Shown in pieces: positions 6,001-12,000 of a DNA stretch of 24,178 bases; the stretch's first letter is position 1, and every line of letters begins with the position of its first letter. The DNA comes from a virus (Duplodnaviria; Heunggongvirae; Uroviricota; Caudoviricetes): IMG/VR virus record IMGVR_UViG_2537561992_000036. The stretch is one strand, 5' to 3'. The position numbers were made by a program.

Positions 6001-9000
6001 CTCGCGTTCTTCTTTCTCTGCAAGCCATATACAATGGCGAAATTCCTTTTCCTCTTTCGTTTCCTGCGGTAGCGACATTATCCGATCGTAGTTTTTTCTG
6101 AATTTATCCAGCACCTCCGATACGGAATTGCCGGAACAGCGGCGCGCGTCATCCGCACCATACAGAGGCGCTGGCATAATTAAATCCTTATTTTTCTAAA
6201 TCAGAATGGGATGGAATCGTCGTATACAGGAGTGTTCTGCTGGTTACTACTTTGCTGCTGCGGGCCATTTCCTGAAGCTGCAAATCCAATCTTTGCATTC
6301 AGTAATTCAAGAGTGATTGATTGACCATTTTGCCCCTGATAAACATCAACCCTGATGTTTTCTCCGGTAATTTCCACAATGCCACCTTCAACAAGAACAC
6401 TACGGTAGTAATCCGCTTGCGCTCCCGGCTTGGCAAATACAACGGCGCTGTAGTTTGTCCATTCTTTCTTTTTTGTCTGGCGATCGTAATACTGAACGCC
6501 AGCACGGATGTTGAATCCGATATTTTCCCCGGTCTGAAACTCTCTTGCGGGCTTGTTTAGTCTTACAGTAATCGAATGTGCCATTAAGCAGCAGCTCCTT
6601 CTAATTCGTCTCGTCTGATGTTGTAAACGTCCTGCGCTTTGTGCTGCTCCGGTGTGCCTTCGAGCATCTTCCACGCTTTGGCGAACGCCTGTTTAAGCTC
6701 TTCTACGGTGTTTTTCTGCATTGCTGCGTCAGTGAATGCTTTTAGAACCTGTTCAGGTGTAGGTGATGGTTTTGATTGCTTTGCTGCTGCGTTCTGCTGA
6801 TGTTTATGCTCGTCGGTATCTGCATCTTTCGCATCATCAATGCCGAATAAACCATTGAGGCAATACTTGCGTGCATAAGAGCTTGTAGCTCCCGTAACTT
6901 GTGCAGAATCCATTCCTTTCTTGCTTTCTTCCTCTCGTGCAAGAGCGGTTGCCGTATGACTGTTTTCGCCATCGGTAATAGTTGCCGTGGCTTTCACATA
7001 ATACCGATCACCAATCAACACAACTTCATCGCTGATTGATAAAAACAGGCCATTCAGTAACGGCTTAACGCCTTCAAGAATATCTTCGCAGCTTCTGTAT
7101 TTATATTTGCCGAATGAGTTGTACTGATTCTTTGGCGCGTTCAGATTCTCCTGAATAGCTGCCAGTCTTGCGTAAAATTCTTTGCTCATATGATTGTTCT
7201 CAGAATGGACACGGCCCAAGGAAATAACGCTGATTTAATACTTCGACTCGGGACAAATTAAGGCATACCCGCATTCCTTCGCGGTCACCATTATGGCGAT
7301 ACCAGAGAGCTTTCTGCGTGTACATGCGCCTCTGTAACTTGCTCTCCTTCACTGTGGTTGCAAGTGACATGAATATCTCCTTCGTTACCGATTAATTCTT
7401 TCATCTGACGAATGAATTCTTCGTCTGACCAGTTATCTGTAAAACTCATTTCCTGCGATAACACGGAAGGTTGATAGCTGATTTCATCGCTTTATTTGCT
7501 TCAAGCCACATTTTTGAATCACCAATAAATCGGGCTATTACTGCCTTGTTCTGTGCAGCACGAAGCATCTGGTGATTGATGGCTATTTCATTGCGCATAA
7601 TAAGACCTCAACTCTTTTCCATCCGTCACGTAATTTACGGGTGATTCGTTCAAGTAAAGATTCATTTAATTGGAAGGCACCCATGCGAGCGCCTCCCGCG
7701 ATTGCGTAAATCATGGGTGGTTCCTTATGTTGGTTTTATTAGTAGGTTATTTTTGTTGCGAATAATTCGCCTTTTACGATGGCTGTTATGATATTTTTAG
7801 CAACATCTTCTGATGCGCCAACCTTGATAAGGTCAGCAAGTATTTTGTTATTTACTTCTTTCCGGTGAGCTTTATCCTTTGCTCTACGCTCTTCTTCGTC
7901 CTTGATTCTTTTTTCTTCTGCTATTCTGGCTTGCTCTTTTGCTTCAGCCTCGCGCAGGATTCGTTCTGCCTCCTCCTGTGCTTTACGGCGTTCTGCTTCA
8001 ATTGCCGCATGCTTTTCTCTTTCAGCTCGTTCTGCTGCCTCTTTTGCTTCGCGCTGTGCTCGTTGCTCGGCTTCAATGCGTTCACGCTCTGCACGTTCCT
8101 CTGCGGCCTTAGCTTCTGCTTCTCGCCTTGCTGCTGCTTCAATTTCGGCTTTTGCCTTTGCTTCGGCTTCAGCTCTGGCTTTCTCTTCAGCTTCTCTTTT
8201 TAAGCGTTCTTCATGCTCTCGCTTTTCCTGCTCCGCTTTGAGTCTTGCCTCTTCTCTTTGGCGGTCAAATTCGCGATCCATCAAAATCGCTATTTCATGG
8301 TCAGACTCAATTTGCTTTGCGAGAGCTTCAGCTGCTGCCTTAGCTTCTTCTTCGGCTTTAATCCGCGCCTGTTCTTCCTCATAATCAGTAAGAGGCTGGC
8401 GCGCCTTGGCTTTCAGTTCATCAAGGCGATCGCGCACTGTCTTGCGGTTAGCATCAATTAGCTTTGGAATTTCCTTCAGTTCAGCAACAAGGTCTTTGCC
8501 AAGACCATCGAGATATGTTTTCGTCTGCGCAACTTTATACGCCAGATAAGCGATCTCCTTTCTGCCCTTTGCCGTTGTGATATCAGGCACAAAGGACATA
8601 ACTTCACGTTCAACCTTTTGAAGAATTTCTTCAATCTGGTCGGCAGACTAAATTACAGTCATTGCATTTGCTTTTTCAATAACAACTAAATCTGTTACTT
8701 CACTCATATATCCTCCGTCAAAAAAATTGCCCTCACACTGGAGGGCAAAGAAGATTTCCAATAATCAGAACAAGTCGGCTCCTGTTTAGTTACGAGCGAC
8801 ATTGCTCCGTGTATTCACTCGTTGGAATGAATACACAGTGCAGTGTTTATTCGTATGCCTGTCTTTTAACCACATCAGGCTCGGTGGTTCTCGTGTACCC
8901 CTACAGCGAGAAATCGGATAAACTCTATTCACCCCTACAGAGAGAATGATGGAGATTCACCGATGAGTAACTGGTGGCAGGAACTATTACGTTTCTTCCT

Positions 9001-12000
9001 GCGTGGTCTTACGCTACAACAGTTAATTCATATGCTTATTATTTTAATTGCCTTGATAATAATCACCCCAGCATCAATTAAAGAGTGGGTAGATATAAGG
9101 AACCCCGAAATACTTCCAGATCACTGGATGTATTACGCAATGCTTTTGTGTATCAGTTATGTTCTGAACAGGGGGATGGAGTGAACCGCCCCGGAAATCC
9201 TGGAGACTAAACTCCCTGAGAAAGAGGTAAACAGGATGACTAAAAATACTCGTTTTTCCCCCGAAGTCCGTCAGCGGGCGATTCGTATGGTTCTGGAAAG
9301 TCAGGATGAATATGACTCACAGTGGGCGGCAATTTGTTCCATTGCCCCAAAGATTGGCTGTACGCCGGAGACTCTGCGTGTCTGGGTTCGCCAGCATGAG
9401 CGGGATACCGGGGGCGGTGATGGTGGGCTCACCAGTGCTGAACGTCAGCGTCTGAAAGAGCTGGAACGTGAAAATCGTGAACTGCGCCGCAGTAACGATA
9501 TCCTTCGCCAGGCTTCCGCTTATTTTGCGAAGGCGGAGTTCGACCGCCTCTGGAAAAAATGATGCCACTGCTGGATAAGCTGCGTGAGCAGTACGGGGTC
9601 GGACCGGTATGCAGCGAACTGCATATTGCCCCGTCAACGTATTACCATTGTCAGCAACAGCGACATCATCCGGATAAACGCAGTGCCCGTGCGCAGCACG
9701 ATGACTGGCTGAAGAAAGAGATACAGCGCGTATACGATGAAAATCACCAGGTATACGGTGTGCGTAAAGTCTGGCGTCAGTTGTTACGGGAAGGTATCAG
9801 AGTGGCCAGATGCACTGTGGCACGTCTCATGGCAGTTATGGGACTTGCCGGTGTTCTCCGGGGTAAAAAGGTCCGCACTACCGTCAGCCGGAAAGCCGTT
9901 GCCGCATGCGACCGCGTAAACCGTCAGTTCGTGGCAGAACGTCCAGACCAGTTGTGGGTGGCTGATTTTACCTGGGTAAGCACATGGCAGGGCTTCGTTT
10001 ATGTGGCGTTCATCATTGATGTGTTCGCCGGATACATCGTGGGATGGCAGGTCTCATCATCCATGGAAACAACATTCGTGCTGGATGCACTGGAGCAGGC
10101 GTTGTGGGCCCGTCGGCCGTCCGGCACAATCCATCACAGTGATAAAGGTTCTCAGTATGTATCGCTGGCCTACACGCAGCGGCTTAAGGAAGCCGGATTA
10201 CTGGCATCAACAGGGAGTACTGGCGACTCGTATGACAACGCGATGGCTGAGAGCATCAATGGTCTTTACAAAGCGGAGGTAATACACCGTAATAGCTGGA
10301 AAAACCGGACAGAAGTGGAACTGGCCACACTAGCGTGGGTGGACTGGTATAACAATCGACGATTGCTGGAAAGGCTGGGCCATATTCCTCCGGCAGAAGC
10401 AGAAAAAGCTTATTATGCTTCCATCGGAAATAATGATCTGGCAGCCTGAGTTCACAGATAAAATACTCTCCAGGAAACCCGGGGCGGTTCAGCGTGATGT
10501 TGATCGCGCAGAAACAGATTTACTTATCAACCTGTCAACGCTTACCCAGCGCGGTCTGGCAAAGATGATTGGCTGTCATGAATCGAAGATAAGCAGAACG
10601 GACTGGAGATTTATTGCTTCGGTCTTGTGTGCTTTCGGAATGGCATCAGACATCAGTCCGATTAGCAGAGCTTTTAAGATGCGCTTGATGGACTCACCAA
10701 TAAAAAACGCCCGGTGTGCAAGACCGAGCGTTCTGAACAAATCCAGATGGAATTCTGAGGGAATTACTGGATCAATCCACAGGAGTCATTATGACAAATA
10801 CAGCAAAAATACTCAACTTCGGCAGAGGTAACTTTGCCGAACAGGAGCGTAATGTGGCAGATCTCGATGATGGTTACGCCAGACTATCAAATATGCTGCT
10901 TGAGGCCTATTCAGGCGCAGATCTGACCAAGCGACAGTTTAAAGTGCTGCTTGCCATTCTGCGTAAAACCTATGGGTGGAATAACCAATGGACAGAATCA
11001 CCGATTCTCAACTTAGCGAGATTACAAAGTTACCTGTCAAACGGTGCAATGAAGCCAAGTTAGAACTCGTCAGAATGAATATTATCAAGCAGCAAGGCGG
11101 CATGTTTGGACCAAATAAAAACATCTCAGAATGGTGCATCCCTCAAAACGAGGGAGGTTCCCCTAAAATGAGGGAGATCCCTCAAAACGAGGGAAAATCC
11201 CCTAAAACGAGGGATAAAACATCCCTCAAATTAGGGGATTGCTATCCCTCAAAACAGGGGGACACAAAAGACACTATTACAAAAGAAAAAGAAAAGATTA
11301 TTCGTCCGAGAATTCTGGCGAATCCTCTGACCAGCCAGAAAACGATCTTTCTGTGGTTAAACCGGATGCTGCAATTCAGAGCGGCAGCAAGTGGGGAACA
11401 GCAGAAGACCTGACCGCCGCAGAGTGGATGTTTGACATGGTGAAGACCATCGCACCATCAGCCAGAAAACCGAATTTTGCAGGGTGGGCTAACGATATCC
11501 GCCTGATGCGTGAACGTGACGGACGTAACCACCGCGATATGTGTGTGCTTTTCCGCTGGGCCTGCCAGGACAACTTCTGGTCCGGTAACGTGCTGAGTCC
11601 GGCCAAACTCCGCGACAAGTGGACCCAGCTCGAAATCAACCGTAACAAGCAACAGGCAGCCGTGACAGCCAGCAAACCAAAACTCGACCTGACAAACACT
11701 GACTGGATTTACGGGGTGGATCTATGAAAAACATCGCCGCACAGATGGTTAACTTTGACCGTGAGCAGATGCGTCGGATCGCCAACAACATGCCGGGAAC
11801 AGTACGACGAAAAGCCGCAGGTACAACAGGTAGCGCAGATCATCAACGGTGTGTTCAGCCAGTTACTGGCAACTTTCCCGGCGAGCCTGGCTAACCGTGA
11901 CCAGAACGAACTGAACGAAATCCGCCGCCAGTGGGTTCTGGCTTTCCGGGAAAACGGGATCACCACAATGGAACAGGTTAACGCAGGAATGCGCGTAGCC

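Follow-up and report, generated by a model that had tools for sequence, protein, structure and literature searches.

What became of the immunity region of a lambdoid prophage at the point where an insertion sequence (IS) now joins the remains of two of its genes? The question is raised by IMG/VR virus record IMGVR_UViG_2537561992_000036, a 24,178-nucleotide stretch of caudoviricete DNA that was analyzed at its full length and is called the window below. The window covers the left half of one such prophage, which lies between ybhC and ybhB in an enterohemorrhagic Escherichia coli (EHEC) of the O26:H11 type. A single IS, copy A, stands there between a truncated sieB gene (sieB′) and a truncated cII gene (cII′). 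A first-pass annotation, made from the sequence alone, had read this arrangement as an IS-mediated adjacent deletion of N, cI and cro. Our analysis shows that an IS629/IS1203-type element sits exactly where 3,073–3,076 bp of the ancestral genetic switch was; the loss was very probably IS-associated, and the prophage was probably locked by it. The features of the locus that carry the argument are given here in window coordinates (ORF, open reading frame; IRL and IRR, left and right terminal inverted repeats).

8963..9181, plus strand: truncated sieB, codons 1–73 of 179 (PF14163; 100% identical to residues 1–73 of SieB in strain 88_1577)
9182..10491, plus strand: IS copy A, complete, 1,310 bp, IS629/IS1203-type, IS3 family (identified by inverted repeats, identity to an IS1203 copy and domains; no target-site duplication)
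Parts of copy A: IRL at about 9182–9222, IRR at about 10451–10491, orfA 9236–9562, orfB 9559–10449, ALIL frameshift pseudoknot 9517–9633
10415..10831, plus strand: hybrid ORF that starts inside the right end of the IS and runs into cII′ (from the ORF list, reading frames and RefSeq annotation of relatives)
10492..10757, plus strand: cII remnant, codons 12–99 of 99 (Phage_CII PF05269, profile positions 8–72 of 91)
14122..15431, minus strand: IS copy B, 1,310 bp, inverted relative to copy A, a simple insertion with a 3-bp CAC duplication (14119–14121 and 15432–15434)

The joints at copy A and the interval lost

The sieB′ ORF (8963–9184) encodes 73 amino acids, against about 179 for full-length SieB, and matches the Pfam SieB profile (PF14163) at positions 2–48 of 147. 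Its stop codon, the TGA at 9182–9184, consists of the first three bases of the IS, as had first been described. Nothing other than the IS lies between the sieB′ and cII′ flanks. On the far side the sequence does resume in cII, but the earlier wording of a “cII-like 3′ end” was too narrow. Only the first 30–32 nt of the gene (10–11 of 99 codons) are missing and about 89% of it is kept, with codon 11 rebuilt from the terminal CA of the IS. A 1-nt deletion at 10679, private to the window, places the cII stop (10755–10757) out of frame with the remnant, and tblastn of cII against the window recovered residues 11–76 and 70–100 in two different frames. A complete CII ORF with both native ends in one frame is not present here, as the first 10–11 codons are IS-derived and the frame is broken at 10679.

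Intact versions of the locus were found in strains 88_1577, CAU16175 and 07_3636. In all three the same prophage occupies the attachment site used in the window, sieB-N-cI-cro-cII is present and the arms are 99.8–100% identical. Strain 88_1577 is without any IS in this region, and comparison with it defines the missing interval. Window positions 6536–9182 correspond to 88_1577 positions 1–2647 at 100% identity, and 10490–14121 to positions 5721–9354 at 99.75%. Beyond copy B, window 15432–16132 continues in 88_1577 with a 3-nt overlap that is the copy B duplication. The loss relative to 88_1577 amounts to 3,073 nt. As one T and a CA occur both at the IS ends and in the native sequence, it may be as long as 3,076 nt. 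The lost interval held the following features.

Left part: sieB codons 74–179; N (PF25694); a minus-strand boxB hairpin (nutL); repeated operator-like motifs at oL; pL; two small ORFs
Right part: a 234-aa cI (Peptidase_S24); oR, with operator repeats and an inverted pair of 13 nt that is exact; pRM/pR; cro; nutR (a boxB hairpin); the start of cII

The first-pass annotation saw no repressor, cro, N or operator sequences between the flanks, and searches of the window agree. N, cI (234 aa) and cro of the intact relative gave no tblastn match anywhere in the 24-kb window, its oL and oR regions gave no blastn-short match there, and the operator half-site and boxB motifs were absent from the window at 0–1 mismatch. 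A repressor–cro pair elsewhere in the prophage would have changed the picture. The complete prophage of strain E2865, which has the same junction, contains a Rha-family regulator and a KilAC antirepressor but, over its whole length between ybhC and ybhB, no second cI/cro pair. Nor is the junction ancestral. Eighty-seven genomes have the intact cI-cro segment at ≥99% identity, many of them with it in that very chromosomal position, and because intact relatives occupy the same site with near-identical arms, the junction is derived.

One intact relative, 07_3636, carries a separate IS629 variant inside sieB. It lies 180 nt further into the gene (about codon 133; locus L009, 9242–10551) and has a CTT duplication. 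As a progenitor of copy A it was ruled out by the 180-nt offset, by its own duplication and by 29 differences over 1,310 nt.

Origin of the deletion

Copy A has the makings of a complete element. Its terminal inverted repeats are 41-nt imperfect arms, 76% complementary, beginning TGAACCGCCCCGG, and both IS copies in the window possess 41-nt imperfect inverted repeats, orfA, orfB and an ALIL pseudoknot. Pfam identified HTH_Tnp_1 in orfA and rve in orfB; HTH_21 was also found. The copy A pseudoknot (Rfam RF01497, 121.5 bits) is a programmed −1 frameshift signal joining orfA and orfB. Intact orfA and orfB, together with the pseudoknot, suggest that copy A is apparently still functional. Copies A and B differ at 3 nt over 1,310 bp (99.8% identity). 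Copy A is 96.0% identical, gap-free over 1,310 nt, to a copy annotated IS1203 in O157:H7 strain TW14359, and its naming rests on that annotation. An Rfam scan of the window returned the two ALIL pseudoknots only and no phage RNA family.

The flanks of the two copies differ. Copy A is preceded by GATGGAG and followed by GCGTGATG, so that GAG faces GCG and the 3–4 bp target-site duplication is missing, as already noted in the first-pass annotation. At copy B, CAC stands at either end, and the matching empty site, GAAAAACCACCACGCAG, is present in relatives such as 07_3636. The absent duplication at copy A is a mark of rearrangement and no argument against its being an IS. At IS629 sites in O157, a 3–4 bp duplication was present at only 21 of 47 and missing at 26 of 47, and 62% of sites lie in prophages (PMC3271280). 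The 5 nt adjoining IRL are alike in the two copies (TGGAG at A, TGGTG at B), possibly through target preference or by chance.

These flanks bear on whether the IS was a latecomer. The switch might have been lost by an IS-independent deletion, for example by illegitimate recombination, with the IS inserted into the new joint afterwards. This is possible in principle, and IS629-type elements often insert in prophages (PMC3271280). A later simple insertion should, however, have left a 3–4 bp duplication of the kind seen at copy B, rather than GAG opposite GCG. Both breakpoints would also have to coincide exactly with the insertion point, and no IS-free deleted allele was found among genomes carrying this sieB allele. 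We regard this order of events as highly improbable.

The same flanks speak to a reading in which no switch was truly deleted and the flanks of an IS were merely exchanged, either by inversion between copies A and B or by formation of a chimera with an IS in another prophage. That A and B are inverted, near-identical and recombining in other strains would allow such an exchange. But the duplication at copy B is complete, the sequences on its two sides run together in the empty site, and gene order and strand are canonical throughout the window; an A–B exchange is ruled out by these observations. An inter-prophage chimera was likewise ruled out, as a single intact prophage in the same chromosomal position accounts for both arms, at 99.75–100% identity. 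We give flank exchange almost no credence.

We infer, with strong support, that the IS itself caused the deletion, because the joints lie exactly at IS termini, no duplication is present and the same copy later made one-sided deletions. Distribution counts were taken over 5,426 complete E. coli genomes. The exact sieB′–IS joint is present in 20 of these and the exact IS–cII′ joint in 21; the two always co-occur, or the exception is explained by later rearrangement. Sixteen genomes have the collinear arrangement of the window. As the joint is base-identical in all carriers, a single origin is most likely, with the deletion arising once and being common to about 21 sequenced genomes. Hits H23–H25 (O103:H2 and other strains) were considered as further IS–cII joints and rejected as unrelated IS insertions joined by the search tool.

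In other strains copy A, itself unmoved, has gone on to lose more of the flanking DNA, on the left or on the right. Strain 93_0495 has the order sieB′–IS–ren′, with the left joint unchanged and window 10492–12452 lost. In 08_4358 and PV0838 the order is TolA′–IS–cII′, with the right joint unchanged and window 7953–9181 lost. The pre-state of both nested deletions is the window allele. In the primary and both later deletions the joints fall exactly at intact IS termini; at the primary deletion the flanks are collinear with 88_1577. The segment between copies A and B (window 10492–14121, cII′-O-P-ren-ninB-ninE) is inverted in 10159, 7_12_30A and PV0838, which shows IS–IS homologous recombination at this locus. 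In 7_11_88A, which is without copy B, sieB codon 35 and the middle of P are connected by an IS600 lacking a duplication (locus L005, 6428–7691). The switch was probably lost there a second time, independently.

Across strains, sieB has been hit by three IS events: copy A at codon 73, the 2.2%-divergent IS629 variant at about codon 133, and the IS600 without duplication at about codon 35.

Two IS-driven routes could have removed the switch. In the first, a transposase-driven one-ended event at copy A, the classical adjacent deletion, would take away the flank up to a new joint. It may have been aided by the IS-excision enhancer (IEE), which is common in O26:H11 strains. Genomic deletions of a few nt up to more than 40 kb next to the element have been linked to IS629, and IEE is found in O26:H11 (PMC9943667). 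In the second route, another copy in the same orientation would insert nearby, giving two direct copies, one in sieB and one in cII, and RecA-dependent recombination between these 1.3-kb copies would then excise the switch. This two-copy route predicts the footprint observed, namely exact IS ends, no duplication and collinear flanks. It also fits copy-out-paste-in transposition, which, according to a review of IEE, does not itself remove donor flanks (bioRxiv 10.1101/2023.06.07.543989). IS–IS recombination operates at the locus, as seen from the A–B inversion in the three strains above, and sieB is repeatedly targeted by IS (the IS629 variant in 07_3636 and IS600 in 7_11_88A). On the other side, no genome among the 5,426 has two direct IS copies flanking the switch, and the route would be needed three times over for one IS copy, once for the primary deletion and twice for the later ones. 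We rate two-copy recombination as quite plausible, if a little short of probable, and the one-ended and two-copy routes as about equally likely. The two together are far more likely than either an IS-independent deletion with later insertion or flank exchange.

Some observations weigh against IS-associated loss as read here. A pre-deletion intermediate, with an IS at sieB codon 73 or cII nt 32, a duplicated target and the switch present, was not found among the 5,426 genomes. In the IS3 family, transposing by copy-out-paste-in regenerates the donor and does not itself delete flanks (bioRxiv 10.1101/2023.06.07.543989), and a one-step route therefore needs an extra reaction. Microhomology at the joints amounts to 1 nt (T) and 2 nt (CA), with 0 nt at the two later deletions and no clear end-joining signature. 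Of the adjacent deletion first proposed, the involvement of the IS is strongly supported; a one-step adjacent event is about as likely as two-step IS–IS recombination.

Consequences for the prophage and its surroundings

The first-pass annotation concluded that the prophage was left without its own repressor. This stands, but the emphasis was incomplete, as pL, pR, N and both nut sites were lost too. Because these went together with pRM, the pRE region and the repressor, the prophage is probably silent and locked rather than derepressed. With neither early promoters nor antitermination, there would be no route from the SOS response to int/xis, O/P or Q expression. By analogy with lambda biology, SOS induction would not be expected, and int/xis, O/P and Q would not be transcribed from the prophage's own early promoters. 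Immunity and SieB-type exclusion would be lost on the same grounds, and what is left would be a chromosomally fixed prophage that carries effector genes.

The IS right end adds 19–25 IS-derived codons in frame to cII codon 11. In relatives without the frameshift (locus L001, 14034–14360) the resulting hybrid ORF is annotated in RefSeq as a 108-aa “CII family” protein (WP_000638163.1); in the window it is frameshifted. A promoter scan found no sigma-70-like outward promoter at the IS right end for cII′-O-P. The hybrid ORF is probably incidental.

The lost repressor links this prophage to Stx1a-converting phages. Its cI shares 233 of 234 residues with the repressor of such phages, as found in an O103:H2 Stx1a prophage and in phage Stx1a_PV728; identity is 97% for cro and about 90% for the oR region. 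Given this shared cI/cro/oR type, the ancestral prophage was probably homoimmune with Stx1a-converting phages. The deletion may then have removed a second, cross-acting source of repressor along with SieB exclusion, altering acquisition or repression of Stx1a phages in this O26 sublineage. We think this last step unlikely; if true, it would mean an effect on toxin-phage induction in the sublineage. The cI-cro segments lie at L012 4501–5552, L007 7781–8832 and L015 3871–4922 in the loci compared, and many O26 genomes with the intact allele have two places matching this cI-cro.

Further features adjoin the joints on either side.

7739..8599, minus strand: TolA-like gene in the ea10 position, part of the pL operon; left neighbor of sieB, partly lost where the IS-anchored deletion extended leftward
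10697..10816, minus strand: oop-like antisense unit at the 3′ end of cII (consensus scan: promoter-like TTGAGT-17-CATAAT and a strong terminator with a 12-bp stem)
10791..11727, plus strand: O, with ori iterons at 11138–11214; a pseudogene through private 1-nt deletions at 10983 and 11286
11724..12426, plus strand: P, with a frameshift from a private extra G at 11795

The antisense unit is called oop-like from its position, presumably corresponding to lambda oop. The replication genes next to it are damaged in the window. Four private 1-nt indels (10679, 10983, 11286 and 11795) frameshift cII′, O twice and P, and are absent from 9 related loci; intact O in 07_3636 has 312 aa. No 100% match to the cII′–P stretch of the window exists among the 5,426 genomes, the best being 99.6%. 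The private frameshifts may have arisen by decay once the prophage was silent, or may be sequencing errors, the region being multi-copy. Positions 11176 and 2504 of the window go with these four. Four substitutions in P, at 11700, 11817, 11826 and 12021, differ from the O26 relatives and are common to CAU16175, which suggests exchange or conversion between P alleles of lambdoid prophages.

Gene order in the window was assigned by near-identical annotated relatives. The window starts in ybhC, and its minus-strand part then comprises int, xis, an Erf/anti-RecBCD recombination module, kil, cIII and the TolA-like gene. The plus-strand order is sieB′, IS copy A, cII′, O, P, ren, ninB, ninE, IS copy B, ninF, the KilAC antirepressor, rusA, ninH, a truncated Q, lpxR, a second Q and the lysis genes. 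Copy B interrupts an ORF between ninE and ninF, whose uninterrupted form in relatives is WP_000924601.1. The TolA-like gene has Ala/Glu-rich internal repeats at 7909–8353, and an internal stop is annotated in all relatives. The LpxR-family lipid A deacylase gene (17568–18527, minus strand) is likely a moron, flanked by the truncated antiterminator remnant and the intact second Q (about 19002–19691).

In relatives, copies of the ybhC/ybhB prophage carry the type III effector genes nleH, cif and espJ. Strain E2865 is O26:H11 ST21 (PMC8281228); the right end of its prophage lies at ybhB, nleH, cif and espJ are present, and an IS66-family element takes the place of head genes. E2865 also has a third IS629-type copy near xis (locus L001, 5411–6720) and an IS600 in ninF (L001, 19283–20439), and strain 10159 has an IS600 near erf (locus L003, 6754–7910); all are absent from the window. 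The extra copies show ongoing IS traffic in the ybhC/ybhB prophage.

Relation to known systems

The locus is of use as a base-exact example of how, through an IS, a prophage that was mobile and inducible becomes a fixed chromosomal island and retains its virulence genes (in relatives, nleH, cif and espJ). It also supplies a public natural series for flank loss of the IS629 type: besides the intact ancestor and the deleted allele, the genomes include both nested deletions, the inversion and the independent deletion associated with IS600. The event may, in addition, affect immunity to Stx1a phages that share the lost repressor type.

Adjacent deletions are classical for IS1 at gal, and deletions driven by dimer junctions are known for IS30, IS2 and IS911. 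The window allele resembles these in that one IS end is fixed, the adjoining DNA is gone up to a new joint and no duplication is found. In those systems the reactions, replicative intramolecular transposition and reactive dimers, were shown experimentally, whereas for IS629-type elements such a route is putative and the sequence footprint here fits two routes alike.

Defective lambdoid prophages such as DLP12, Rac and Qin of E. coli K-12 and those of O157 Sakai have partly lost their regulatory or replication modules and still contribute accessory genes. The prophage studied here is likewise lambdoid, has lost a module and is probably fixed in the chromosome. Unlike in the cryptic K-12 and Sakai prophages, the exact ancestral allele is still present in sister strains and the lesion is defined to the base. 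The whole bistable switch has gone, while int/xis, the recombination genes, Q and the lysis genes are kept.

The closest parallel is in EHEC O157:H7, where IS629-associated deletions and prophage decay are reportedly described by Ooka et al. 2009 (Genome Res 19:1809) and Kusumoto et al. 2011 (Nat Commun 2:152), both as cited in PMC9943667 and PMC3271280. Common to both settings are a near-isoform IS (96%), a lambdoid EHEC prophage, an IS that is kept with its flank lost and no duplication, and a host background known to carry IEE. Our case differs in its O26:H11-type lineage and in involving the ybhC/ybhB prophage carrying cif, nleH and espJ. It differs too in its nested public alleles, in which one IS copy has lost both flanks and a segment has also been inverted. 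The locus is a further, ordinary instance of the known IS629-type erosion of prophages in EHEC, and current understanding of that process is unchanged by it.

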